Assembly: GCA_019058245.1 (NCBI GenBank) | Contig: JAHPZJ010000013.1 | Location: 201,166 to 265,165 of the forward strand | Reading direction: 5' to 3' | DNA length: 64,000 nt | Origin: Promethearchaeota archaeon | GTDB taxonomy: Archaea; Asgardarchaeota; Lokiarchaeia; Sigyniarchaeales; SOKP01 | Part shown: positions 4,332-49,156 of the stretch, one piece after another | Layout: each line of letters opens with the position of its first letter | How positions within the stretch are numbered: the stretch's first letter is position 1 | Made by a program: the position numbers and the translations under genes | Notes under the pieces: model-generated | Databases searched by the model: none | Seen by the model: only the letters and a program-made list of their open reading frames with translations | Told to the model about the DNA's origin: nothing

Positions 4332-4646
4332 TTGACTAATAAAACAATAAATTTCTGTCCATATTGTGGAAAGAGAATTCGTTTCTATATTAAAGATAAA
4401 TTAAATTATTGTTGTTTTTGTGGTAAAAAGCTAAAAGTAGAAAAACATAAAATAATATCGCAAGTCCAATGTACAATTTGTCATATAAAGATTGATCCAG
4501 ATAAAGATAAAACAATTAAATGTTCATTTTGTGGAAGTACTTACCATTATAGATGTGTATATTCTTGGCTTCAAAATTATAATGCATGTCCTATGTGTCA
4601 AAACGTGTTTTTATTTCCAAATAAATCCATTTCAATCGTTAAATAA
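4332..4646 (+). CDS. Zinc-ribbon + RING-variant finger protein (putative E3 ubiquitin ligase)
   Basis: CPYCG..CCFCG ribbon, then CTIC-x13-CSFC-x4-HYRC-x3-W-x6-CPMC. Confidence 0.8.
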   Translation: MTNKTINFCPYCGKRIRFYIKDKLNYCCFCGKKLKVEKHKIISQVQCTICHIKIDPDKDKTIKCSFCGSTYHYRCVYSWLQNYNACPMCQNVFLFPNKSISIVK

Positions 4647-4709: not shown

Positions 4710-4928
4710 TTAATTTATTAGAAATTCATTCACTAAAATTTGCTGAAATTCAGTATCTTTTTCTTGAAAAAGTATATTTTCTTTTCCAGTATATATATCT
4801 GGAGAATGACTTTTTTTAAACAATATCGAGAACGGGATAATTATATAGGCGATATTTGATGTTTCTTCTTGAACATTAATTTCATCGAAAAATTCATAAT
4901 AATTTTTATTTTCTACCTCTAATCCCAT
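4710..4928 (-). CDS. Microprotein, copy 1 of a four-member paralog family
   Basis: Gapless motif NIx4IPFSx9DIYxGxExIxFxEx4Fx2ILx2EFL shared with 5492..5743 and 9974..10189. Confidence 0.8.
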   Translation of the reverse strand: MGLEVENKNYYEFFDEINVQEETSNIAYIIIPFSILFKKSHSPDIYTGKENILFQEKDTEFQQILVNEFLIN

Positions 4929-5024
4929 TTCTTATCTCACATTGATTACTATTTAATATTCAATAAAATTTCATCTACTTAAATTAATAGACCCGACAAA
5001 ATTAGTGATTACTTTTTATTTTCA

Positions 5025-5339
5025 TCAATATTTTGAAAGGAATTCTTCTTTCAAAATCTGTTTATATTTTAAATTATCGCTTTTTAGAGAATCATCTTCT
5101 GAGTTTGAAAAAATATCGATTGGATATTTCTCGTTATACATATTTAAAACTAATATTATCAAATTTGAAATGTTTTTGAAGGATACCTTTGAATTATTAT
5201 CTGAGAATAACTTTTCTACCAGCTTAGATAATAAAATAAATTTCTTTCTTTGAAGTAATTTTTTATTAGATAGAGTTTCTGGCTTGAAAACATTCTCTAA
5301 ATATTTTATGACTCTTTTTTCAATTGTAAGTGAATTCAC
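5025..5339 (-). CDS. Small protein, divergent copy 2 of the microprotein family
   Basis: C-terminal NISNLII..DIFSNSE..YKQILKEEFL aligns without gaps to the family motif. Confidence 0.7.
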   Translation of the reverse strand: MNSLTIEKRVIKYLENVFKPETLSNKKLLQRKKFILLSKLVEKLFSDNNSKVSFKNISNLIILVLNMYNEKYPIDIFSNSEDDSLKSDNLKYKQILKEEFLSKY

Positions 5340-5491
5340 AATCCATCAAGATCTAATCTCCTTTATGGATTATTTAATCTTAAATATAAAAACGGAATGT
5401 TTTTTTTTGATATATTAGTTATTATTTCAAGTAAAACCTCTTGTTCTTTAAATGAACCATTGAACGTATAAAAATTGAATATTTCCTTCAA

Positions 5492-5743
5492 TTAGGTTAA
5501 AAATTCTTGGATATAAATTTTCTTATAATCTTGATGCCTCTCTTCAAAACAAATTTTCTCATATCCAACATAAATATCGTGTGGCTTTTTTAAATCCTTA
5601 ATTGCAGAAAAAGGAATTAAGAAGAGTGATATATTGAGAAATGGGTGGTTTTCCGACAAATTGAATAATTCTTGCCATATTTTATTATAATCGTCTACAA
5701 CCATATATGCTATCCAAATTTGAAAGTTTTCCCATTGATTCAT
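5492..5743 (-). CDS. Microprotein, copy 3 of the family
   Basis: NISLFLIPFS..DIYVGYEKICFEERHQDYKKIYIQEFL. Confidence 0.8.
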   Translation of the reverse strand: MNQWENFQIWIAYMVVDDYNKIWQELFNLSENHPFLNISLFLIPFSAIKDLKKPHDIYVGYEKICFEERHQDYKKIYIQEFLT

Positions 5744-5912
5744 ATTTCTTACTTATCATATAAATTTTAAATATCTCTCCAAAAGTAAACGATAGGTTTA
5801 TATAAAAAAAACTTGAAATTCGATTTATTTTATGAAGAAAAGGAAATCATAAAGGAATTAATTTAAATTTATATTAAAAAAAAAAAAGAAATTATAATTA
5901 TTATTTTATCGA

Positions 5913-7325
5913 TTATTCACTCTTTATAAAGGATATAATCAATATTCCGATTCCCATTATAATACCAACAGATATCATTGCCCAACCAAATGCAGCTTTA
6001 CCTATAATATCATATGATAGCATAACAGTTCCCCAAACAAATGGACCCAATGCTGAAGAAAATTTCCCACTTAGTTTAGAAAAGCCAAAAAATTCTCCAA
6101 ATTTTTCTTTGGGAGCAAGTTCTATTACCATTATTCGTTGTGCTACCCAAGTTCCTCCTAGAGCGGGGCCTGCTACAATACCCATAATGAGACTTAGAAT
6201 AAAGGGAAGATTCGCACCAACATCAATTGATTGCGTTGTAAATATTAAAATAATACCAATTGTTAATGAAATCCCCCAAAAAGCGCCAACAAGGTAAAAA
6301 GTCTTTTTTGCACCATATTTATCACCAAACTTTCCAACAAAGTATGTGAAAGCAACTGCAGAAATAGTAGCAATAATAATAAAAAGTATGGCAAATAGTG
6401 TTCCACCAGCAATACGTAATCCATCAGTTACTATTGGTGTCATATAGAGAACAATAACGTTAGCAATATCAGCAACAAAAAAGTATCCAATGATAAATAT
6501 AAACATTGATTTATGTTTTCGAATATCTTTAAAAGTATTACCTAATTGTCTGAAAGTATTTTTTATTAATTTATTTATAGGTGGTCTTCGAAATTTTTTC
6601 TGCTTTTCTCGGACATAAAGGAATGGAATTGTGCATATTAAAAATAGAATCATGGGTATAACAAATGTAAACCAGTATCCAGAAAATCCATATTGTATTG
6701 GTTTATCTTCAGCTAGTACTGGTGGAGTTGATACAGTATCACCTAATAATATTATTAAGGGATACATTATAACGAGAGCAAGAATGGTACCTAAGTAGCC
6801 CCATGCAACCCCAAATCCAGCAACCTTACCAATATCCTCTCTTTTAGCTATAAATGGAAGCATTGCATCATAAAAAGTTAAACTAAATTGATAAGCAACA
6901 TTTGCAATAACATAGAATGCTAGAACCATTGTAAGATCATGGAAGAAGCCAAGTAAACTGGCAAAAAGAAGAATAAAACCGGTTAAACTCACAACAAAAG
7001 GCTTCCTTTTTCCTAAATTATCACTAAAGGCCCCTAATATGGGAACACAAACAGCAACTCCAAGTTGCATTAAAAAACTTACTGTACCAAATAAAAAACT
7101 AGCTGTACCATAGGATATTCCATTTTCTAATTGTCCAATAACTAAAACATAACGATTTATAATTAAACTTACGATTACCATTGAATAAATTGTGTTTGCG
7201 AGATCATACATGGCCCAAAAGAATACATTACGTTTAGAAGTAGTTGTTTCATACTCAACTTCTTCACCATCAAGAATTTCAGAAGGTGAATTTGTATTAT
7301 TTTCTTTTTTTGACATTTTAATCAT
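5913..7325 (-). CDS. MFS transporter (UMF1/Atg22-like)
   Basis: WAMYDLANTIYS, GAFSDNLGKRK, FYDAMLP; about 12 TM helices. Confidence 0.9.
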   Translation of the reverse strand: MIKMSKKENNTNSPSEILDGEEVEYETTTSKRNVFFWAMYDLANTIYSMVIVSLIINRYVLVIGQLENGISYGTASFLFGTVSFLMQLGVAVCVPILGAFSDNLGKRKPFVVSLTGFILLFASLLGFFHDLTMVLAFYVIANVAYQFSLTFYDAMLPFIAKREDIGKVAGFGVAWGYLGTILALVIMYPLIILLGDTVSTPPVLAEDKPIQYGFSGYWFTFVIPMILFLICTIPFLYVREKQKKFRRPPINKLIKNTFRQLGNTFKDIRKHKSMFIFIIGYFFVADIANVIVLYMTPIVTDGLRIAGGTLFAILFIIIATISAVAFTYFVGKFGDKYGAKKTFYLVGAFWGISLTIGIILIFTTQSIDVGANLPFILSLIMGIVAGPALGGTWVAQRIMVIELAPKEKFGEFFGFSKLSGKFSSALGPFVWGTVMLSYDIIGKAAFGWAMISVGIIMGIGILIISFIKSE

Positions 7326-7479
7326 ATAAAATTAGATTTAGGTTATGAATTAATGATATAATACCTTGGATTAAAAATTTTATCTATATTGAGAATGAAC
7401 TTTATACTGTATGCATAAATAATCTTGAGTATAAAGAAATTCTGAATTAATTTTCCTTAATTTAAGAAAAAGATGGATG

Positions 7480-9039
7480 TTACTTTTTTTCTTTAGTTAT
7501 TTTCCTTTTAATGCCTATTTTTTTTGGTTTTTTTTTTACTTCCTTGATGATTGTATCCTCTCTTGTCAATTGACTTTTCAATTCTTCAGCGATACTATCA
7601 AGTTTATTAGCAGTGGTACTTACTTCTTCCATTGCAACAGTTTGTTCTTCTGAGGCAGCACTAATTTCCTCCATTGAATGTGTGGTATTTCTAATTTTAT
7701 CAATAATTTCATTAATAATAGATGTAGTATTTTTAATTGATTGTTTTATCCCCTCTGCAAGTTGTCTCACTTCATCTGCTACTACTGCGAATCCTTTTCC
7801 ATATTCTCCAGCTCTTCCAGATTCTATTCTTGCGTTTAATGATAATAAATATGTTTGTTCTGAAATATCAATGATCATTTCTGAGATTTTTTTGATTTCA
7901 TCTGATGAATCTGAAATTTCCATAATCTCTCTTGTTACTTTTTCAGTTGAAGCTGAAACTTCTTCTGCCGATGCATTAACTTCATTTGCACTCCCCGCCA
8001 ATTCACTAGCCATATTTGCCACATCAATAACAGCTCTAGCTCCTAATTTTAAAATATTTTCCATTGATTTATTTGTTTTAACAATTTCTTTTGTAGTTGG
8101 GATAGCGATTGCTATACTAATTCCAATTGCCAATACGATTGAAATAATGACTATGATATATGAAATAATTATTGTTATTTTTGAGTTTTCAATACTATTA
8201 TTAACTTCAGTTTCAATATCGTAATATATGTGACCAATGAGAATAGTTATTGGAGTATCTAAATTTTTAAGCGATTCCTTTCTTGATATAAGAGAATCAA
8301 CTATATTGAATAATTGATTTAGAACAAATGGTTCATAAGAATTATTATACCAGCTTTTAATCGCATTTGCAAGTGTCTTATTTTGACCAATAGGACTATC
8401 TATTATTATTTGTAGATTATCTTGAAATTCTGTCCCAAGATCGATAAACTCTAATTCAATTTCATCTCTTGTTAGTTTATTTGATTCATTACTATAATCA
8501 TTAATTAAAACTAATTGAGATTTTAGAAAATATTTTAATTCTGTAGCACTGTTTTTTAAAGTTAAATCAGTTTGTTGTGTTGTTAGATCAATTATATCTG
8601 ATTCATAACTCTGTGTAGCACTTTTGATTTGAGATAAATAAATAGAGAATTTATCTATTAAATTAAAAAGCCCATTGGTTTCATTAGTTGCAATTACATT
8701 AATTTGATTAATATAATTGCTAAGGGAGGATAAGTAATAAATCAAGGGGGGGTTTAATTCCTCTAAAATAATTGCAGATTCTAAAATATTTTCATATGAA
8801 TTATTGTAATTTGCTCTCATAATCATATCTCCACTCTCATAAGTATAGATAGTTCGCATAATTTTCTCGGTATGATATTTAATATTATTAGCATAAATAT
8901 TTGACTGTAATTTATTAGTTGTTAAATCGTCAATGGTGGAATTTAAAGTATAAATTTGAATCAAACTCGCAATTCCAAGGATTGTACATAATCCAATTAA
9001 AATAATATAACCATTTCTCATCCTTTTTTTAATATTCAT
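7480..9039 (-). CDS. Methyl-accepting chemotaxis-type receptor
   Basis: Two TM helices flanking an extracellular helical region; signalling tip [35 protein letters not shown]. Confidence 0.9.
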
Positions 9040-9431
9040 AACTTAAGCTCTTGATATTTTTTGGTTAATTCAAAATAACTAAATAATTTTTTTCCTAATT
9101 CCTAATCAACAGAATTCAAATTTAAGAAAAAACTGAATTAATCATATTAGTTTATTAATTTAAACTTTTATCCATAGTTCTATAGTCGTGCTAAGAGTAC
9201 AAAAAAAAAATAGGAGATAGGATTATAAGGTTCAATTATCACTTCTTGAATCTTTTCAAATATTCTTTAATTCTACAAATTCCAAACAATTATAATAAAT
9301 TGTTACTGAGAAATTTTCTGTACTTTAGCAAAATTTGTAAAAAATCATAATTATAAAGAATATAGATAATCCACAAAACTCAAAAGTTTTTTTATATATT
9401 CAAACTAATAACATTATAGGTGTAATTAATC

Positions 9432-9914
9432 TTGCCAACTTCGAGAAGAGAATATTTAAAGCAATCCTGCAAATCAAAATATGAAAAATCCTTTGTAGAA
9501 GCAGTTCCAAATAACTTATTAGAGTTATACGAAGCGAATGTTAATATAGGTCAATATACTGTTGATTTTGCAATTGAGAAATATAAAATTGCTGTTGAAT
9601 GTGATAATATCCAATTAGATTATAAAACACCAGACCAAAAGAAAAGTGATTTAAGAAAAACTAAATTCCTTATCGATAATGGTTGGACAGTTTTTAGGTT
9701 TACCGCTCAAGTACTATTTTCGGCAGCACTTTTATGCCATAAAATGGTTGCTGATGAAATTGTTAAATATGAACCAAAAATAATGGATGTAAGTGAATTT
9801 TTATCTAATGAACAAATAGATTTTATAAACGAGAGGCTTTCTAATGTTGATATCACTACCTCACCTACATTTAAAAATGAAATAAGAACATTTGAAAGAA
9901 GAAGGAGCTCTTAA
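9432..9914 (+). CDS. DUF559/Vsr-like PD-(D/E)xK endonuclease-fold protein
   Basis: YTVDFAI..KIAVECD..DLRKTKFLIDNGWTVFRF. Confidence 0.75.
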   Translation: MPTSRREYLKQSCKSKYEKSFVEAVPNNLLELYEANVNIGQYTVDFAIEKYKIAVECDNIQLDYKTPDQKKSDLRKTKFLIDNGWTVFRFTAQVLFSAALLCHKMVADEIVKYEPKIMDVSEFLSNEQIDFINERLSNVDITTSPTFKNEIRTFERRRSS

Positions 9915-9973
9915 TGATTAGAACCATAAAAAAATAATACATTTTTTTTGAGTTCTAACTTTAGATAAGTTTT

Positions 9974-10189
9974 TTAAAATTCGATAAATTCCTGTTGTAA
10001 AATCATTTTATATTCTGGATCCCTTTCTCTAAATGGAATTCTCTCATTTCCTGAATAGATCTCCATAGATTTATATTTCTTAAATAGCTGTGAGAAAGGT
10101 ATGACGAGTTCAGAAATATTACAACTTTCTGAAACATGAGTAATATTAAGATTTTTATATTGAATTTTTTCTATTTTTCCAGAACTCAT
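9974..10189 (-). CDS. Microprotein, copy 4 of the family
   Basis: NISELVIPFS..EIYSGNERIPFRERDPEYKMILQQEFI; begins 14 nt after the RHH gene stop. Confidence 0.8.
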   Translation of the reverse strand: MSSGKIEKIQYKNLNITHVSESCNISELVIPFSQLFKKYKSMEIYSGNERIPFRERDPEYKMILQQEFIEF

Positions 10190-10203: not shown

Positions 10204-10629
10204 TCATTCTTTTACAATCAATTTTCCTCTTATTCGGAGTTTAACTCCTAACTTTTCTAATTTACTCCTATATTCAAAAATAATATCTCTTAGAATTTTT
10301 TTGCTAATTTCTAGTTGTTCAGCTAATATATCAAATTCTATCTCATTGAATAGTTCTGAGTACCTCACTAATTTCTGAATTGAATCTTGAATAACCTGAT
10401 CATAATCTGCAATCTCGATTTCCCTAGTAATATCATTTAAATCAATATCATAATTGCTCGTTAATAAATTTGGATTACTTTCAATCCAATTATGTATTAA
10501 ATTTCGGACTGTTTCTGAACGAGATTGTCTCCTCTTTTCTGCCATCAGATTAATAACTCTCTCATCAAAAGCATCGAGACTAAATGTAATTCTAGATAAA
10601 TCCGATGATTTCTTTGATTCTGATGGCAT
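10204..10629 (-). CDS. Ribbon-helix-helix (CopG-like) regulator with C-terminal winged-helix-like domain
   Basis: RITFSLD..INLMAEKRRQSRSETVRNLIHNWIE is an RHH pattern; C-terminal IEFDILAEQLEISKKILRDII is HTH-like. Confidence 0.75.
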   Translation of the reverse strand: MPSESKKSSDLSRITFSLDAFDERVINLMAEKRRQSRSETVRNLIHNWIESNPNLLTSNYDIDLNDITREIEIADYDQVIQDSIQKLVRYSELFNEIEFDILAEQLEISKKILRDIIFEYRSKLEKLGVKLRIRGKLIVKE

Positions 10630-10680
10630 TTTTTATCTATCCGACAAAATTTTGATATTTAATATAATCATTTTTTTTCG

Positions 10681-10743
10681 AATATTTAAATATTTGCACA
10701 AATGATCATTTAGTGCATCACTGAAGATGCATAGATTTATAAA
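10681..10743. promoter_or_regulatory. Palindromic operator array and TATA-like box in the divergent RHH / cyclin-box intergenic region
   Basis: AATATTTAAATATT (10681-94), TGCAC-AAATGATCATTT-a-GTGCA (10695-717), TGCATC-n6-GATGCA (10714-31), TTTATAAA (10736-43). Confidence 0.55.
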
Positions 10744-10804
10744 TGAAGAGGATCTTATAATATTCATATATTATTTGAATGTCATTTAAATATTATACCC
10801 TAGT

Positions 10805-11455
10805 GTGTGTAAAATGTTAGAACTTTATACTCCCCAATATGAAGAAATAAATACCAGAGAACGTATTACAATTGATATAATAAAGGATGGTCAAGAATTT
10901 TTACAGCAATTTGATATTAATCCTGACTATCTACTAGATACAGTTTCAGTTGTTTATAAATATTTGAGAAATAATGGTAAAATTCCTCATAATTTATATA
11001 AATTCTTTATTGCTGCTTATTATATAATTTCTCGACATCCTTTTGCCTTTCCTGTTCATGAAAGCAAAAAAACTTTCTGTGAAAGATTTAGACTCCCTAT
11101 AAGCGCGTTAGATTATTGCGTCGAAAGAATAGTGGATACATTGGATTATATTAGAATTTTAGACGATATGAATTTCCCTTATTTTATTGATCCTAAACGA
11201 GATATTTGCTTAAAATTTATAAAAAATCTCATTAGATCCAAAGTAGATAAAGCAATGATGCGTTTTTTAATAGGAAATCAGCCAATAAACTCTCAAATTC
11301 TTACTGAAGAATTGGTAAATGAGGTAATCTTTAAGCAAAAAGCTTTTCCTGAGGAGTTGTTAAGACAATTATTTGATATTGCTTTTGAATACGTTGAGGA
11401 AGGGTTTTTGGAATACAAGGAATATGTAAGATTGCAAAAAAAAATGTTTATATAA
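10805..11455 (+). CDS. Hypothetical protein with a cyclin-box/TFIIB-repeat-like region
   Basis: FLQQFDINPDYLLDTVSVVYKYL..FFIAAYYIISR..KKTFCERFRLPISALDYCVERI parallels the helices of a TFB cyclin repeat; no Zn ribbon. Confidence 0.55.
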   Translation: MCKMLELYTPQYEEINTRERITIDIIKDGQEFLQQFDINPDYLLDTVSVVYKYLRNNGKIPHNLYKFFIAAYYIISRHPFAFPVHESKKTFCERFRLPISALDYCVERIVDTLDYIRILDDMNFPYFIDPKRDICLKFIKNLIRSKVDKAMMRFLIGNQPINSQILTEELVNEVIFKQKAFPEELLRQLFDIAFEYVEEGFLEYKEYVRLQKKMFI

Positions 11456-12676: not shown

Positions 12677-13270
12677 ATGGCAGTCTATAAAAATATCGCA
12701 GAATTCCTTGAATTTATAAATATTAGCAACGATAACTTTACTCTTTTTGAATGGAAACCAGCAAGATCTATGAGGAGATTTGATTTAGATCTAAATATAG
12801 TAAAAGAAAATCCCATCACTGACATTTTCTTTCATAAAGATAAGGGTAATATGAAAATTGTATATATAAGAAAGCATAATCTTATATATACAGTAGGTGC
12901 TAGCCCTCGAGTCCAATATCAATTACTGGAAGCGTTATTAGAATATATAGACTTATTATTCAACGATTTTTATGATATAGAGGTGATATTATCTTATAGC
13001 GATTTTTCTCCAGGTATTTTTAATGGATTCAAGGAAAGTGTTGAAAATACTATAAGAGATTTTGCTGATTTAGATTTGGTTAAAAGGATTTTAGTAGAAT
13101 GCCGGGTATGTAATACAGTTCTCCCATTATTTATAAAAAAAAGTATGATTGAAAATGCCGAATCTTACCCTGTTCCTATAGTATATGAACACCGGGGTCA
13201 CGCGATATTATGTTTTATCGATAAAAATTTTCATCATCGTGGTGTTGAACTAGTCAATATTTCAGGATAG
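12677..13270 (+). CDS. Longin-like domain + C-terminal Cys/His metal-binding domain protein
   Basis: Beta-beta-alpha-beta-beta-beta-alpha pattern (MKIVYIRKHNLIYTVGA..LLEALLEYIDLLFNDFY), then CRVC..HRGH..FIDKNF..RGVE. Confidence 0.55.
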   Translation: MAVYKNIAEFLEFINISNDNFTLFEWKPARSMRRFDLDLNIVKENPITDIFFHKDKGNMKIVYIRKHNLIYTVGASPRVQYQLLEALLEYIDLLFNDFYDIEVILSYSDFSPGIFNGFKESVENTIRDFADLDLVKRILVECRVCNTVLPLFIKKSMIENAESYPVPIVYEHRGHAILCFIDKNFHHRGVELVNISG

Positions 13271-13353
13271 AAAAATATTAAAGCCTATTTTTGAGTGATT
13301 ATTCTTAAATTCTCAATAATGAATTTTAAAAGGATAATAAAAATAATATACAT

Positions 13354-14394
13354 ATGGAAGAAAATCAGAATTCTGATGATCAACCCTTTTTTGAGGATGT
13401 TGTAAAAAAAACAAAAACAGGCATTACTTTTCCAAAAGAGTTAAGGGACTCATTATTTGAGGAAGATGCTGACATTTTTTTCAAATTAGTGGTTCCAAAA
13501 GAGAAAGATAAAATAATCTTGGAGTTTTTATCTGATGAAGAAGCTAAAGAATTATCTGAGAAATCAAAAACTAAGAAAGCTAAAGTAATTCCTACTTCAA
13601 GTGCTTCTGGAGAAAAAGGAAAAAAAACTACTAAAAAAACTTCAGCTCTAACCCCCGCTTGGGGTGAATATTTTGTTTATGATTTTGAAGCAAAAGATAA
13701 AATCATTCCTATTTTAGAATCTGCTTTTTATAAGTTCGCTGAAACTCCCTTAAACTTAGAAGATGCCATGGGACGAGTAAAATACGCATTGGTGTCTTTT
13801 CTTACCTCTACTAAAACGGAAAATGCTAAACTATATTTTGCTATTGAAAAATTCTTGATAGATATTATTGATAAGTTTGATCAACCAAATTTGCTTGATT
13901 GGATCTTTGAAAAAATTATACCAAATATTGAAAGCAAATTCCTTTATGAATTAGCATTATTAGAATTGGTTGAAGCTAGTTTGAAATTTAAAAGATGGGA
14001 GAAAGCAGAAATCTATATATTCTATGTGTTAAAAAACATCGATAGCTATGCAAAATCAGAAATGTATAACATTATGAACAGCTTTAAACAATTAGTTAAG
14101 AAAGTTAAATATGTTGAGAGAAGCGATAAAATTGATATTTTACTTAAAGAGAAGCTAATGGAATACGGTAAGGGGGTTGATTTAGATTACAAAATTCAAA
14201 TTGTTGAATTTCTTGAAGATTTACAGTATATCGAACTAGCATATAATCTAGCAAAAGAAATTCAAGTAAGTTTACCTCCCGAAAGTATGAAAATTGAGGA
14301 AATAAGAAAAATAGTCAGAAGATTACATACTGCCCCTATCGAAAGTAAACCCGTTTCAAGTACAGATTTTGAAGAAGATGATCCAGAGGATTAG
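13354..14394 (+). CDS. Hypothetical protein: AbrB/SpoVT-like N-terminus + helical repeat region
   Basis: KTKTGITFPKELRDSL..FKLVV..KIILEF resembles AbrB; the rest is all-helical and TPR-like. Confidence 0.5.
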   Translation: MEENQNSDDQPFFEDVVKKTKTGITFPKELRDSLFEEDADIFFKLVVPKEKDKIILEFLSDEEAKELSEKSKTKKAKVIPTSSASGEKGKKTTKKTSALTPAWGEYFVYDFEAKDKIIPILESAFYKFAETPLNLEDAMGRVKYALVSFLTSTKTENAKLYFAIEKFLIDIIDKFDQPNLLDWIFEKIIPNIESKFLYELALLELVEASLKFKRWEKAEIYIFYVLKNIDSYAKSEMYNIMNSFKQLVKKVKYVERSDKIDILLKEKLMEYGKGVDLDYKIQIVEFLEDLQYIELAYNLAKEIQVSLPPESMKIEEIRKIVRRLHTAPIESKPVSSTDFEEDDPED

Positions 14395-15659
14395 GTTTTT
14401 TTATTTTCTTCTTCTTTATGCCCCTCTTTTAATTCATCCTCAACTCTCTTCATTTCTTGGTCCATTATTTTCTGTTCCTTTTGTTCTATAGATTTTTGTT
14501 TTAATTCAATTTCAACTTGAGATAATTCTTTTTCTTTTTCAATTAACTCTTCTTTTATTTTTAATACTTTTTCTCGCTCTAGAATTTCTTTTTCTTCTAA
14601 TTCCTTTTCTTTCTCTTCAATCTCTAATTTTTTTTTTTTGATTTCAATGTCCTTCTTTTTTAGTTCAATCTCTTTATCAATAATTTCCTCTTCTTTTTTC
14701 TTGAGTTTTTTAGGAATTTTTTTTTCAATTTCCTCTCCCATTTCACTTTCTTTTTCTAAGATTTCTTCTTTTAATTTAAGGACTTCTTCTTTTTTTTGCA
14801 TTACTTTTTCTTCTATTTCCTTCTTTTTTTCTTCTAATTCTAATTTTCTTTTCTTAATTTCTAATTCTTTCTTTTTTAGTTCAAATTCTTTATCCAATAT
14901 TTCAGATTCTTCTTTTTCAAGAGAAATTTCTTTTTTTTCATCCGCTTTTAATTTTTCAATTTGATCTTCAGGAATTTCTTTTTTTATATTTTCTTCTTCT
15001 ACAATTTCTTCAATTTTATCAACAGAAACTATGGATTTTAAAATCTGATCGATATATTCTTTTAAGACTTCATTTTCTGGAATATCAGCAATCTGTTTTA
15101 TATAATCTTTTAAGATTTTTGTTAGAAAACCAGGAGACCTATTTCCTATTATTTTTAGTACCTGTAATGCTTTTTCTATTACAAAGTCTTTATCATCGGA
15201 TAACCTTTTTAAGATAACGTTTATAAGCTCGATATTATCGATTGATGCTTCTCCTCCAACCATATAGATTAATAACTGTAAAGCAGCTTCTCGAACATTA
15301 GGATCTTCTGAATTCAATAAATCTTCACTATAAGGAAGAAATAAATTAGCTTCATCTTCACAAATTGTTTTTAAAAGTAGTAAAAACGTATATCTTAGTA
15401 CCGAATCTTTTTTCGATAAATTTTCTAATAAAGATGGTATATCAATAATAAGGTTTTCAATTAAGAAGCGTAAAACGGTTCGTCCTCCATGTAATGTTAA
15501 TAAAGATTCAATTACTTCTTCAAGTCTCGCTAAGTATTCCACTTCATTAGCATCTCCGATAAAGAGTGCAATAATTTGTACGGCATCGTCAAATCTACCA
15601 TCATTTACAAAATCTTTTATTTGACTAATTTCTATCGCATCATTTTTTTCATCATTCAT
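14391..15659 (-). CDS. HEAT-repeat protein with long E/K-rich coiled-coil tail
   Basis: LLNSEDPNVREAALQLL, LSDDKDFVIEKALQVL HEAT motifs; about 190 aa of E/K-rich tail containing an internal duplication. Confidence 0.8.
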   Translation of the reverse strand: MNDEKNDAIEISQIKDFVNDGRFDDAVQIIALFIGDANEVEYLARLEEVIESLLTLHGGRTVLRFLIENLIIDIPSLLENLSKKDSVLRYTFLLLLKTICEDEANLFLPYSEDLLNSEDPNVREAALQLLIYMVGGEASIDNIELINVILKRLSDDKDFVIEKALQVLKIIGNRSPGFLTKILKDYIKQIADIPENEVLKEYIDQILKSIVSVDKIEEIVEEENIKKEIPEDQIEKLKADEKKEISLEKEESEILDKEFELKKKELEIKKRKLELEEKKKEIEEKVMQKKEEVLKLKEEILEKESEMGEEIEKKIPKKLKKKEEEIIDKEIELKKKDIEIKKKKLEIEEKEKELEEKEILEREKVLKIKEELIEKEKELSQVEIELKQKSIEQKEQKIMDQEMKRVEDELKEGHKEEENKKT

Positions 15660-16877: not shown

Positions 16878-18437
16878 ATGTTGAGGCAAATCCATATTTT
16901 TCTAAAATCAGAGCTAATATTTGTTAAAAATTACGCCATGGCTCTTGGAAGTGAAGAATTAGATAACGTAATGAAGATTATACAAAAATACATCGATATG
17001 CCAATACCAGGTAAAACTTTTCAGAGGAATTTAACAGAATTTCAGATATTTCATAGAGCATCTGATAATTTATATTTTCTCTTTATTACAGATCTAGTTG
17101 ATTCACTCCAATATATTGATGAAATGATTATAAAAATTATTGAGAAATTCAAACAAATATTTCCTAATCCTTCAAACGCAAGTGAAACTGGAACTTCTAA
17201 TGATGAATTTAATGATTTTTTAAATCAATTACAAAAAGATCTACATTCAAAAATAGCAATAATAGGACCTACAGAAGCAGGAAAAACAACTCTCTATAAT
17301 ATGTTGAGAAGTGGGGAAGAAAAAATCCATATGGATTTTGCTAAAACATCAACAATGCAAATTGATAGTATTAGTTTTGATCTTTGGGATTTCCAATTAA
17401 AAGATAATTTCTCTCTTCTTTGGTCAAAATTTATTCGAGGATCTGATTTAGTTATCCTTCTGTTTAATTTAGCAAATTATAACTTAAAAATGATGGATCA
17501 TTTTATGAAACTTCATAAAATAGATGGTAAATATTCAAAATTATTAATTCTTGGAAATAAAAGAGATTTAATAGAAGACACAGATATAAAAAGGATAAAA
17601 AATGAGTTAAGTATTACTGATTTTGAAGAAATATCATTAAACACTTCTGATGCGAAAGAACAAATTAATCAACTTATTATAAAGACTTTAAATTTAAGGA
17701 AAGAATTACCTTCTGATTTTTTTGATTTATTAAAAAAAACAGATAGCTTAGTTTTAGAGGGAAAAAGAGTCGAAGCATTAGCTAATTATAAAGAATTACT
17801 TAATACTAGCAAGAATTATCATAATATAAAATACACAAAAGCTATAGAAAAAAAAATTGAAAACTTACATCTTAAAATTCAAGAAGAAATTGACAAAAGG
17901 AAGGAAATTGTAAAAGATAAAGATTTTGGACCAGCAAAACCATTATTATTTACACGAAAGGTCACAGTAAAGCCTCTCCCAGATGCATTAGATTCAGACA
18001 AAACTTTAGATATAAAACCATTACCTAAAGAAAAACCAGAAATTCCTTCAGAATCCGTTAAAGGATTAGTTTCTTTTCAAAAACTTGATATAGAAAAAGA
18101 AATAAAAACTCCAATAACTGAAAAGCATCAATTAAAAATTATTAAACCAATCTCAACTTCAAAAAAGAGAAAAAAAGAATCAAAACCAGAAACAGAAATG
18201 CCACTTGAATTATTTGGACCTCATAAAGAACTAAAAGAAGATATTAAAAAACCTCTAGTTATTGATTTTACCAAGGAACTACAAAAGATAATATTTCAGA
18301 AAGGAAGCTCTCTTAGTTTAGAATTATGTGAGAATTTAATTATGGAATTAGAAAGATCTTTAGAAAGGCCTATTACAATTGAAGATATTGAATTAGCAGC
18401 AAATTTTTTTGTGAAACAAGAACAAAGTTCTCAGTAA
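16878..18437 (+). CDS. Longin + Ras-superfamily (Arf/Rab-like) GTPase fusion with helical C-terminal extension
   Basis: N-terminal longin pattern (MLRQIHIF..FHRASDNLYFLFITD..IIEKFKQIF); G1 GPTEAGKTT, G3-position WDFQ, G4 NKRD, G5-position ISL. Confidence 0.85.
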   Translation: MLRQIHIFLKSELIFVKNYAMALGSEELDNVMKIIQKYIDMPIPGKTFQRNLTEFQIFHRASDNLYFLFITDLVDSLQYIDEMIIKIIEKFKQIFPNPSNASETGTSNDEFNDFLNQLQKDLHSKIAIIGPTEAGKTTLYNMLRSGEEKIHMDFAKTSTMQIDSISFDLWDFQLKDNFSLLWSKFIRGSDLVILLFNLANYNLKMMDHFMKLHKIDGKYSKLLILGNKRDLIEDTDIKRIKNELSITDFEEISLNTSDAKEQINQLIIKTLNLRKELPSDFFDLLKKTDSLVLEGKRVEALANYKELLNTSKNYHNIKYTKAIEKKIENLHLKIQEEIDKRKEIVKDKDFGPAKPLLFTRKVTVKPLPDALDSDKTLDIKPLPKEKPEIPSESVKGLVSFQKLDIEKEIKTPITEKHQLKIIKPISTSKKRKKESKPETEMPLELFGPHKELKEDIKKPLVIDFTKELQKIIFQKGSSLSLELCENLIMELERSLERPITIEDIELAANFFVKQEQSSQ

Positions 18438-18604: not shown

Positions 18605-20089
18605 ATGAGAGAACTCAAGGAATATTTTACTGAAAATACGAGATTGAACTATATTCTAGCATTGTTAGAATGGGATCAACAAGTGAATATGATGAATTAC
18701 AAAAATGTTATAGGACGATCAGAACAAATGGCTCTTATAACCAAGCTTATACATAAGAGATTAGTATCAAATGAAGCGGGTGAGATTATAAAACGCGCAG
18801 AAAAACTTGGAGATCTCAATGATATTGATACAGCTATGTTAAGAGAAGCAAAGAGAGCATACGATCAAGAAATCAAATTACCCGAAGAATTGGTTATAGA
18901 AATACAAAAAACTTCCGCAATAGCACAGCAAACATGGCAAAAAGCAAGACAAAAAAATGACTTTAAATCATTTATTCCTTTATTGGAAAAAACTATAGAA
19001 TTACAAAGAGATAAAGCAAGGAAACTTGAAACTCACTCTGATTTATATTCAACCTTAATTGATTTATATGAACCTGGAGCTACTTATGATTGGATCGCCA
19101 ATATATTTAATCCAATAAAACCAAGATTAACTGATTTTGTTAAAAAGCTAGAATCTAGCGCTGAAAAACCTGATGATTCTATATTAAATAAAGAATATGA
19201 TCCCGATAAACAATTTAAATTGAGTTATGAAATTTTAGAAAAATTAAATTATGATTTTAAACAGGGACGGCAAGATCGATCCACACATCCTTTTACTACA
19301 TCGTTAGGTTCATTAGATGTAAGAATTACAACTAGAACCACAGAACCCTTTCCATCTTGTATTACTGGTACTATTCATGAGTGTGGTCATGCTCTTTATG
19401 AAATGGGAATAATGAAAGAATTGCATGATACTATCTTATGTACTGGTACTTCAATGGGGATACATGAATCCCAATCAAGGCTTTGGGAAAACGTAGTTGG
19501 AAGAAGTAAAGAATTTTGGACATACTGGTACCCAACTTTTCAAAAATATTTTCCAGAAAACTTAAATAATTACCCTATGGAAGAATTTCATAGAGCTATC
19601 AATTATGTTCATCCATCATTCATAAGAGTAGAAGCAGATGAAGTAACTTATGGATTGCATATTATTCTTCGATTTGAGATTGAGAAAGGCTTGATTGATG
19701 AGAAAATTCAAGTGAAAGAATTACCAGAATTATGGAATTCTAAATTTGAGGAATTACTTGGAATTGTCCCCCCAAATGATACACTAGGTGTTTTACAGGA
19801 TGTTCATTGGGGAAATGGATATATTGGATACTTTCCCACATATTTTCTAGGAAATCTCTATTGTGCTCAATTCTATAATAGTGCTCTAAAAGAAAATCCA
19901 AAATTACCTGAAGATTATAAGAGTGGAGAATTTTCAAATTTACTAAAATATCTCAGAAATAATATTCATCAATATGGAAGTATTTATCGAGCTAATGATC
20001 TAATAAAGAGAGTTACAGGGGAAGATTTAAATCCTGATTATTTTATGAAATACATTGAAACGAAATTTTATCCTATTTATGGATTATAA
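18605..20089 (+). CDS. Carboxypeptidase, M32 (Taq) family
   Basis: HPF, DVRITTR, HECGH, HESQS, IRVEADE, QDVHW, GYFPTY. Confidence 0.95.
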   Translation: MRELKEYFTENTRLNYILALLEWDQQVNMMNYKNVIGRSEQMALITKLIHKRLVSNEAGEIIKRAEKLGDLNDIDTAMLREAKRAYDQEIKLPEELVIEIQKTSAIAQQTWQKARQKNDFKSFIPLLEKTIELQRDKARKLETHSDLYSTLIDLYEPGATYDWIANIFNPIKPRLTDFVKKLESSAEKPDDSILNKEYDPDKQFKLSYEILEKLNYDFKQGRQDRSTHPFTTSLGSLDVRITTRTTEPFPSCITGTIHECGHALYEMGIMKELHDTILCTGTSMGIHESQSRLWENVVGRSKEFWTYWYPTFQKYFPENLNNYPMEEFHRAINYVHPSFIRVEADEVTYGLHIILRFEIEKGLIDEKIQVKELPELWNSKFEELLGIVPPNDTLGVLQDVHWGNGYIGYFPTYFLGNLYCAQFYNSALKENPKLPEDYKSGEFSNLLKYLRNNIHQYGSIYRANDLIKRVTGEDLNPDYFMKYIETKFYPIYGL

Positions 20090-20233
20090 GTTTCTATTTT
20101 TATCTTATTTCTTAATAGCCTTTTTTTTATGAAAAACAATAATATTATTATTATTAAAATCAAAACTTATATGTAAAATATAACCTAAACTTTACAAAAG
20201 ATATTAGAAAATTTCTCATATTAAGATTTAATT

Positions 20234-21727
20234 TTGAATTTGATGAAAAAACTTTGGGATCATTTCAATGAAATAAAAAGATTAATTTATATTAGAAATC
20301 TTTTAAGTTGGGATCAACAAGTTAATATGCCCAAAGGTTCGGTAAAAGGAAGGGCTGACCAACTAGTAATAATTCAAAATTTGATTCATAAAAGAATTAA
20401 ATCAGATAAAACTGGAGATTTAATAAGAAGTGTTGAAAAATTAAATAATCTCAATGTAACAGATTTAGCTATGATAAGAGAAGCTAAAAGACATTATATG
20501 CAAGCAACTAGAATACCAGAGACTTTACTGAGTGAAATTACTAAGCAATCAACTTTAGGTTATAATATATGGGAGAAAGCTAGAAAAAAAAGTGATTTTT
20601 CAATTTTTCAGCCATATCTTGAAAAAATGATCAGTCTTCAGATAGAATATGCTGAAAAACTAGAGACAGGCCCAACTTTATATTCAACGCTAATTGATTT
20701 GTATGAACCAGGAGTAACTTACGATTGGATTTTAAAAATCTTTATGAACCTTAAACCTAAATTAATAAAATTCATTAAAACATTAGAAAAATCGTCTAAC
20801 AAACCAGATCAATCAGTATTAAAGAGATATTATGATCCTGAAAAACAATGGCAACTAAGTCTAGATATTATTAAAAAATTAAATTTTGATTTTACTATTG
20901 GGAGGCAAGATAAATCCACTCATCCATTTACTGTTTCTTTATCATCGAAAGATGTTAGAATAACCACGAGAATACGGGAAAATTTTCTAATAGATTGCCT
21001 CTTTTCAACTATTCATGAATGTGGTCATGCTTTATATTATATGGGATTTAATGAAGAGATTCAAGGTACACTTTTAGCAGATTCATGTTCATATGGAATT
21101 GGTGAGTCTCAATCAAGATTATGGGAAAATATTATAGGAAGAAGTAAAGAATTTTGGATATATTGGTATACAATTTTCCAAAAATATTTTCCTGAGAATT
21201 TAAAAGATTATCCTTTAGAAGAATTTTATAGAGCAATAAATATTGTTCAACCTTCATTTATTAGAGTAGATGCGGATGAGGTTACTTATGGGTTACATAT
21301 TATCTTACGATTTGAACTAGAAAAAATGATGATTGAGGATGGTCTCCAAGTAAGTGAGTTAGCCTCCTTATGGAATGAAAAAATGGAAGAATTACTAGGG
21401 ATCATACCACCAAATGATGCAATGGGATTATTACAAGATGCTCATTGGTCTAGCGGTGGATTTGGCTATTTTCCAAGTTATGCACTTGGTAATCTCTATG
21501 GTGCCCAAATCTATCAAAAAGCCTTAAAAGACAATCCTAATCTAACTAAAAACTATGAGAAAGGAGAATTTTCTAATTTGTTAAATTATTTAAACGAAAA
21601 TTTATATCAATATGGAAAAATATATAGAGCCAACGATTTAATAAAAAGAGTTACAGGAGAAAACTTAAATCCTGATTATTTTATGAAATATATTGAAGCA
21701 AAATTTAAGCCAATATATAGACTCTAA
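20234..21727 (+). CDS. Carboxypeptidase, M32 family (tandem paralog)
   Basis: HPF, HECGH, GESQS, IRVDADE, QDAHW, GYFPSY. Confidence 0.93.
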   Translation: MNLMKKLWDHFNEIKRLIYIRNLLSWDQQVNMPKGSVKGRADQLVIIQNLIHKRIKSDKTGDLIRSVEKLNNLNVTDLAMIREAKRHYMQATRIPETLLSEITKQSTLGYNIWEKARKKSDFSIFQPYLEKMISLQIEYAEKLETGPTLYSTLIDLYEPGVTYDWILKIFMNLKPKLIKFIKTLEKSSNKPDQSVLKRYYDPEKQWQLSLDIIKKLNFDFTIGRQDKSTHPFTVSLSSKDVRITTRIRENFLIDCLFSTIHECGHALYYMGFNEEIQGTLLADSCSYGIGESQSRLWENIIGRSKEFWIYWYTIFQKYFPENLKDYPLEEFYRAINIVQPSFIRVDADEVTYGLHIILRFELEKMMIEDGLQVSELASLWNEKMEELLGIIPPNDAMGLLQDAHWSSGGFGYFPSYALGNLYGAQIYQKALKDNPNLTKNYEKGEFSNLLNYLNENLYQYGKIYRANDLIKRVTGENLNPDYFMKYIEAKFKPIYRL

Positions 21728-48229: not shown

Positions 48230-49156
48230 ATGAATGAGCAGTATCGAGACCGATTCTTAAATAATAAATTCGATGAAAATAAATTACCTCAATCTATTTG
48301 TTGTGAAAATCCTTTTATTGAATCTCGAGATGGGAATAAAGTCTGTCTGAATTGTGGGATTATTTTTGAACGCACTTTTGTAGGAAATGAAAGACGAGCA
48401 TATACTATAGAAGAGATACAAAACAGGCGTAGAACAGAACCACGTTGGAGAGATTTTGGACCAAGGACTATGCTCCCGAACACGAAAACAGATAGTAAAG
48501 GTAAATCCATAGGTGCTAAAGAGCAAGCTCTCTTTTCACGACTCTCAAAAATTCAAAATTCATTAATTTCAAGCATAGAGAGAAACTTCTGGGAAGCAAA
48601 ACCGAAATTAAAAATGTTAACATCAAAACTTAATATTCCGGAATATATTGCTGAAACTGCTTGGAAAATATATAGTATCGTAGCTAAAAAGAAATTAACT
48701 ATGGGTAGATCAATTAATGGATTTATTTCTGGATCGTTATATGCTGCAATTCGTGTTCATGATTTTCCAAGATTATTAGATGAAATATGTGAAGCTTCAT
48801 TGACGCCAAGACGAACTGTCCATAGAAGCCTAGCAATGATTATTCGAGAAGTGCTTCCTGAAATAAATTTGAGATATCAACCGATAACAGCTGAATCACT
48901 AGTATTTCGTTTTGGAAATGAGCTAGATTTGCCGATTAAAATACAGAAAAACGCTATTAATATGTTAAGAGATGCTTCTAAAAATGGATTGAAGCGAACT
49001 GGAAAGGATCCTAAAGGTTTAGCAGCAGCGTGTATATACATTGCGGCAAAAAATGGTTGTATTCGGAAAACACAATCGAAAGTTGCTGATGTGGCTAAAA
49101 TTACAGAGGTTACTTTAAGATCTCGAGCAAAACAAATAAAAAGTAAACTTTCATAA
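48230..49156 (+). CDS. tfb: Transcription initiation factor IIB (TFB)
   Basis: Zn ribbon CC..VCLNCG, ERRAY, ERN, GRSING, LYAAIR, GKDPKGLAAACIYIA, TQSKVADVAKITEVTLRSR. Confidence 0.93.
   Translation: MNEQYRDRFLNNKFDENKLPQSICCENPFIESRDGNKVCLNCGIIFERTFVGNERRAYTIEEIQNRRRTEPRWRDFGPRTMLPNTKTDSKGKSIGAKEQALFSRLSKIQNSLISSIERNFWEAKPKLKMLTSKLNIPEYIAETAWKIYSIVAKKKLTMGRSINGFISGSLYAAIRVHDFPRLLDEICEASLTPRRTVHRSLAMIIREVLPEINLRYQPITAESLVFRFGNELDLPIKIQKNAINMLRDASKNGLKRTGKDPKGLAAACIYIAAKNGCIRKTQSKVADVAKITEVTLRSRAKQIKSKLS

Follow-up and report, generated by a model that had tools for sequence, protein, structure and literature searches.

A conserved family of small proteins with a shared C-terminal core in a Lokiarchaeia genome, its longer paralogs and a candidate partner family

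The window analyzed here (64,000 nt of contig JAHPZJ010000013.1, positions 201,166 to 265,165 of the forward strand, in assembly GCA_019058245.1 of a Promethearchaeota archaeon from the class Lokiarchaeia) contains four small open reading frames (ORFs), which an earlier note made from the sequence alone had grouped as a four-member microprotein family with a common C-terminal domain of 46 amino acids (aa). All four were confirmed where they had been placed, on the minus strand, with three of them in tandem at intergenic distances of 96 and 152 nt, as had been claimed. The ORF called at 5492..5743 exists, albeit with a probable ATG start at position 5704 (70 aa), as in its orthologs. The four ORFs are real, conserved genes of an undescribed small-protein family of Loki-type Asgard archaea, and are listed below together with the ratios of nonsynonymous to synonymous substitution rates (dN/dS).

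4710..4928, minus strand: short member of subfamily A, 72 aa; dN/dS 0.20 in the core and 0.73 in the N-terminus; conserved GTGAG ribosome-binding-like site
5025..5339, minus strand: subfamily B, 104 aa with four predicted helices, bridging the short and long forms (HHalign, profile match)
5492..5704, minus strand: short member of subfamily C, 70 aa (annotated from 5743); core dN/dS 0.32
9974..10189, minus strand: short member of subfamily D, 71 aa, 14 nt downstream of a ribbon-helix-helix (RHH) gene; core dN/dS 0.19

Pairwise identities over the 46-aa core reached 24/46 between the A and D members (4710 and 9974), 22 and 18 in the other pairs of short members and 13–15 in the pairs with the B member, and the observed alignment score was not reached in any of the 20,000 shuffles made for each pair. 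The B member was also matched at E 1e-5 (database size 40,000) by a profile of short members from which all sequences of its type had been left out. About 15 of the 46 core positions, mostly hydrophobic or aromatic, were near-invariant among 82 short members and fell into the motifs IPFS, IY.G.E.I.F.ER and IL..EF. The gapless alignment described previously is valid for the four ORFs but not for the whole family, with a two-residue core deletion in subfamily F and longer deletions in other genera; similarly, only 2, 3, 1 and 2 residues follow EF[LI] in the four ORFs, but the tails extend to about 20 aa elsewhere. The N-termini, previously called unrelated, proved to be fast-evolving but subfamily-specific, often starting with MSS or MGL.

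The earlier note had named a lack of purifying selection or of expression as grounds for refutation, and clear selection was found: the core dN/dS in the short forms was 0.17–0.32, while the N-terminal ca. 25 residues evolved almost neutrally (0.58–1.17), and B was constrained along its whole length (0.23), with 0.31 and 0.36 obtained for the neighboring RHH and RING finger genes, respectively. This amino acid-level constraint was seen with the synonymous sites saturated. The copies within the genus formed six orthologous subfamilies tracking the locus and not the genome (with the minimum of five label changes on the tree).

Short forms were present in 106 of the 134 genomes of the host family, 1–8 per genome, and in none of the 26 genomes from other families of the class; they were also not found in genera g12 and g13 of the genus numbering used here. 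Subfamily B occurred in 70/134 genomes and 11 genera, and the position of D was the most widely conserved among the short forms. In total, 237 clusters at 50% identity matched the family, the best 150 all below 200 aa, and the homologs were labeled exclusively as hypothetical proteins of Promethearchaeota, Lokiarchaeota and related Asgard names of metagenome-assembled genomes (MAGs). Several MAGs carried frameshifted or truncated copies, a sign of either gene turnover or errors in assembly. When all six frames of the present genome (assembly 76% complete) were searched with the short profile, these four ORFs alone matched. The family is nevertheless not limited to four members, as had been proposed, since this genome has two long forms and one weak match besides, and relatives harbor up to eight short copies.

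C13:309488 (contig:position): long form
C15:103528: long form
C8:70915: weak short match

The long form, a helical protein of about 100 aa, was found adjoining fusions of the core to a 180-aa domain and aligned with B (HHalign 93–94%, E about 1e-7; 94% at E 9e-8). It was present in all genomes searched from three families of the order (106/106, 9/9 and 1/1) and in the single genome of a fourth, but in none of 152 other Asgard genomes searched. Among the cultured strains, P. syntrophicum has DSAG12_01656, and L. ossiferum has NEF87_004111, NEF87_001461 and NEF87_002055. One long-form gene was also found in Harpocratesius. DSAG12_01656 carries neither a COG nor an arCOG label and was transcribed at 134 reads per kilobase per million (RPKM) compared to 208–293 for its neighbors (PMC7015854, Suppl. 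Table 3). The locus tags of the cultured strains were not named in the main text of the papers searched, nor found in the supplements of PMC9834061. Upstream of the long form H (C13:309872-309897) lies an operator-like element, TGT-N13-ACA, conserved in four genera; similar sites also precede a PAS kinase gene (C8:19933) and an oxidoreductase gene (C19:110310).

The part of the long form that the short forms match is its C-terminal half. The homology is transitive, from short forms to B at E 1e-5 and from B to the long form at 94%, so that the short forms are homologous, via B, to part of a longer paralog in the same genome, the property used to recognize 'microProteins'. Intermediates between the long and the short helix 3 exist; P0200 and P0144 were set aside as apparently chimeric sequences. 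The long form has the wider range, which makes it the putative ancestor. The short forms would then have arisen in the host family when helices 1 and 2 were lost and a proline interrupted helix 3. In two other genera the core is located, singly or in tandem, at the N-terminus of the unrelated 180-aa domain, as would be expected of a portable module. The 180-aa domain itself is undescribed, was seen in only 7 genomes of these two genera and, in each of the five complete copies inspected, stood behind the family core.

A second undescribed multicopy family, termed c11, comprises proteins of about 90 aa with a C-terminal helical hairpin containing RYFMKL. It was present in 125/134 genomes of the host family (1–6 copies) and in 0/26 genomes outside; g12 and g13 yielded no c11, just as they yielded no short forms. 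In three genera, at eight of the loci examined, a conserved gene of 150–168 aa encodes a B-type domain followed in frame by a c11 domain, with the proportion of nonsynonymous differences (pN) below that of synonymous ones (pS) in both halves. Moreover, 19 stand-alone c11 genes were located 11–1395 nt from a family gene, 18 of them on the same strand, with some at the Hel308-Hef locus and others in the interval from B to A. The idea that c11 is homologous to the N-terminal half of the long form and supplies the missing helices was dropped, as there was no similarity and 41 of 60 column shuffles scored as high. The present genome contains the following copy.

C24:4591-4866: stand-alone c11 gene

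The family is undescribed in the libraries and papers searched, in agreement with the earlier note, which had recognized no known family. Neither the window members nor the 82 short, 81 long and 17 c11 sequences gave a match above the curated cut-offs in Pfam, NCBIfam or PHROG, and a match to a described family, which the earlier note would have taken as a refutation, was not found; Rfam gave no match for the family, and the PDB sequence searches yielded nothing significant for the short forms, long forms, c11 or the 180-aa domain. AlphaFold2 predicted no globular fold for D (predicted template modeling score, pTM, 0.33), only residues 51–70 being confident (predicted local distance difference test about 90), while B was modeled as four helices at low confidence (pTM 0.32). 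The VIA structure comparison of these low-confidence models found no relative for D and at best a generic helical bundle (Z 7.3) for the other; likewise, the fold searches of the Atlas and PDB gave generic helical matches from low-confidence models, and the ESM Atlas feature search gave no usable match for D and only leads below 0.9 for the long form. The covariation analysis was too shallow to yield a fold. No membrane segment was detected in the family. The short forms are acidic (median isoelectric point, pI, 5.5; net charge -2), as are the long forms (median pI 5.5), while B is basic (median pI 9.3).

Partial likeness of the core, noted by eye, to a single HEAT/ARM repeat, an S100 pseudo-EF-hand, AbrB/SpoVT, Nop10 and the B-reader of TFB was also considered, but the scores were far below the curated cut-offs and the calcium ligands, swapped-hairpin strands and register were not conserved. 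There is a single helix pair and no tandem repeat, Cnd1 HEAT matching 6/81 long forms at E about 0.01; the would-be bidentate Glu of the EF-hand is E in only 35/82 sequences (E-values 0.25–0.4); the D model has no strands and no Pfam match to AbrB/SpoVT. The Nop10 likeness was seen by eye only and found no support, while the B-reader mimicry, also noted by eye, gave 0.1% in HHalign to TFB.

Every subfamily possesses its own conserved promoter or upstream sequence, and the main elements in the window are as follows.

4992..5008, minus strand: near-invariant element upstream of subfamily A, consensus CACTAAATTTGTCGGG; a TTTAAAT-like box follows after about 10 nt; a probable operator
5384..5392, minus strand: conserved TATA-like box upstream of B
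10641..10651, minus strand: TTTTGTCGG element in the leader of the RHH gene preceding D, with the same core as upstream of subfamily A; in 24/44 RHH genes
10683..10744, unstranded: divergent control region in which two TATA-like boxes, back to back, enclose an ATGCATC-N6-GATGCA inverted repeat; conserved in about 40 genomes

The A element lies about 70 nt before the subfamily A gene, accompanies relocated gene copies, is the best position weight matrix match in this genome and the sole intergenic one among the matches listed, and occurred in 69/135 genomes, mostly in single copy. Its core TTTGTCGG precedes 18 short-form genes, 17 of them of the A type including relocated copies, and recurs in the leaders of the RHH genes listed above, against a background of 17/712. 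A sigma-70 promoter scan was uninformative in this archaeon. Another short subfamily, G, which has no copy in this assembly, is preceded by a conserved GAACTT-N6-AAGTT inverted repeat.

Subfamily D is accompanied by two further genes.

10204..10629, minus strand: CopG-type RHH regulator (Pfam RHH_1, E 6e-5) with a helix-turn-helix-like C-terminal half (by eye)
10805..11455, plus strand: stand-alone cyclin-box-like protein c5 without a zinc ribbon, divergent from the RHH-D pair (profile matches)

The RHH gene is probably co-transcribed with D. The fold of c5 is weakly assigned, with human cyclin B1 as the best PDB match (E 0.02) and TFB repeat 1 at 29% (E 6e-4), but the protein is highly conserved (dN/dS 0.09) and present in four families of the class beyond the host family; the searches recovered it neither from the family with the cultured strains nor from the two families that keep the long form. 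The RHH-D pair faces c5 in five genera, and in one genome D is located directly upstream of c5 on the same strand. The divergent RHH-c5 pair persists without the small gene in g13, g15, g17, g20 and g21 and is older than D. In at least two genomes RHH and D were duplicated together. The small ORF following RHH in g12 is not a detectable family member; a different, unrelated-looking ORF of 80 aa stands there in the place of D (L178:5693-5938 and L179:3859-4104). A public gene call fusing RHH and D (P0364) was recognized as an artefact of reading TAG as Gln. The genome encodes nine TFB paralogs, and the copy in the window (48230-49156) has a divergent B-reader. The other neighbors include a protein with a double zinc ribbon and RING finger (4332-4646, plus strand), whose gene is convergent with that of subfamily A in most of the genomes in the genus; a gene with an AbrB-like N-terminus, noted by eye (12677-14394), in a conserved cluster with a HEAT-repeat protein with a long Lys/Glu-rich coiled-coil tail (14391-15659, minus strand); a protein of 519 aa whose Arf/Roc-type small GTPase domain is flanked by a longin-like region on the N-terminal side and a long region on the C-terminal side (16878-18437, plus strand); and a tandem pair of M32 carboxypeptidase genes (18605-21727, plus strand).

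From these sequence features, the core proteins are probably fold-on-binding modules that are differentially expressed, with the paralog chosen at the promoter. The ORFs would encode cytoplasmic interaction modules and not enzymes; the short forms would be largely unfolded alone and fold on binding, and all paralogs would present the same surface, the cell choosing among them by transcription. The earlier proposal, interchangeable adaptors or inhibitors with one docking partner in common, agrees with several features: the core is invariant, the N-termini are nearly neutral, the model is non-globular and the fusions are portable. The docking itself is putative, and c11 is a better candidate than the partners considered then (the RING, RHH and cyclin-box neighbors). 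The note had overlooked three things: the putatively ancestral helical form of about 100 aa, the promoters specific to each subfamily, and the hairpin family with its similar distribution, adjacent genes and fusions. That c11 is the partner is a serious possibility, somewhat short of an even chance; in that case about 3–8 core proteins and 1–6 hairpins per cell would make a combinatorial set, whose combinations may adjust some shared downstream target. The linkage to the RHH regulator and the cyclin-box gene points to transcriptional control as the putative target. Several points weigh against this interpretation. The related genomes in the counts are kin and not independent observations, and the direct profile comparison of short and long forms was not significant. 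The c11 adjacency count is biased, as the loci were chosen around family matches; many c11 paralogs, including the one in this genome, stand alone; and the fusion concerns the B type and not the short forms, with the C-terminal motif of the family as its most eroded part (pN 0.50 compared to 0.20–0.31). Furthermore, fusion of neighboring genes can arise by simple loss of a stop codon.

Docking of the core on a cyclin fold, either of c5 or of the TFB paralogs, as a cyclin- or TFB-inhibitor-like element of an RHH-controlled switch would be consistent with the position of D opposite c5 in five genera and once directly upstream of it, the cis-element common to RHH and subfamily A, the resemblance of c5 to a cyclin box, the presence of nine TFB paralogs in the genome, and the two core motifs joined by a variable linker. 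Two motifs with a variable linker are the layout of the Cip/Kip inhibitors. This explanation is nevertheless unlikely: the RHH-c5 pair is kept without the small gene in the five genera named above, c5 occurs where short forms were not detected (g12, g13 and other orders) but was not found in the two families keeping the long form, and most paralogs are located away from c5. A joint complex prediction of D, c5, RHH and B gave no answer (score 0.01; c11 was not in the set). The short forms might instead be truncated paralogs that hetero-oligomerize with the long forms (B, H and I), poisoning or tuning them, as truncated H-NS is dominant-negative on its paralogs (PMC5192488). The match to the C-terminal half of the long form and the recurrent pairing of long and short genes (B with A in two genera, and H with a fused short form in another two) agree with this, but the invariant residues of the short forms (IPFS, G.E.IPF.ER) differ from those conserved in the long form, which suggests a new binding surface; this reading was considered distinctly unlikely.

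Binding to a universal machine encoded elsewhere in the genome (RNA polymerase, ribosome, proteasome, PCNA, Hel308/Hef), as a condition-specific inhibitor or hibernation factor, would suit the scattered monocistronic long forms with subfamily-specific promoters, as expected of global regulators, and the location of E and F between the Hel308-like and Hef helicase genes. Restriction to one family would be unexpected for such a role, however, and neither a PIP box nor an HbYX tail was matched, as judged by eye, nor the TFB B-reader, which makes it quite improbable. A type II toxin-antitoxin-like or regulator-coregulator pair of RHH and D, with the other copies as orphans, is very improbable: the two-gene operon does start with a CopG-type RHH, has a 14-nt gap and was duplicated as a pair, but no toxin family was matched, orthology and synteny are stable and vertical and not patchy or mobile, most paralogs lack RHH, RHH occurs without D, and the sole 'fusion' is the gene-calling artefact. 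Least credible was that the genes encode nucleoid or RNA-binding proteins, or that they are spurious ORFs or repeats with no function. The proteins are indeed small and multicopy, and B is basic, but the short and long forms are acidic, constraint acts at the amino acid level, Rfam gave no match, and the long form of strain MK-D1 is only modestly transcribed (RPKM 134; PMC7015854), not as expected of a nucleoid protein.

Among known systems, the Cip/Kip inhibitors p21/p27 share with the family a short, two-motif layout and predicted folding on binding, but there is no RxL among the conserved columns, no match to Pfam CDI, no homology and no known cyclin-dependent kinase (CDK) partner. Like regulatory microproteins and truncated 'microProteins' (PMC13276856; H-NS, PMC5192488), the members are below 110 aa, non-globular alone, built on a conserved core, apparently derived from a longer paralog and separately regulated; in contrast to them, no relation in sequence or predicted fold was detected, the parent domain is undescribed, and at least six short subfamilies coexist. 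The family may thus resemble regulatory microproteins and truncated-paralog inhibitors in its way of working. A link to a cyclin-box gene and an RHH regulator is also known from archaeal cell-cycle circuits with the cyclin-fold TFB2 of Sulfolobus (bioRxiv 10.64898/2026.09.06.749720; PMC7617429), but c5 lacks the TFB zinc ribbon and is weakly assigned, and several genera have lost the linkage. RHH-led two-gene operons (type II toxin-antitoxin systems; CdrS/CdrL, PMC7439475; aCcr1-3, PMC9976878, PMC13199686) likewise combine a CopG-type RHH with a small, probably co-transcribed gene and short promoter repeats, but D matches no toxin or division protein and the family is vertically inherited and mostly located away from RHH.

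The long form was found in every genome searched from the order of the cultured Asgard archaea. It has neither a COG or arCOG label nor a family model and is therefore a blind spot among the core genes of this order, one for which named genes that can be cloned exist. The short forms illustrate how a small-protein family may expand by truncation and promoter diversification, and a candidate partner family was identified through fusion, neighborhood and distribution. With proteins of 70–105 aa, the hypothesis is open to test by a few purifications. It is conceivable, albeit improbable, that the core and hairpin paralogs form a Lokiarchaeia-specific combinatorial network, controlled by RHH, that gates c5 or the TFB paralogs. 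Built on an undescribed helical domain present in all Loki-order genomes searched, it would be an Asgard counterpart of cyclin-inhibitor or bZIP/bHLH-type combinatorial control. If true, the cyclin-box link would bear on cyclin-fold regulation in archaea without CDKs; if not, a lineage-specific regulatory family would remain.

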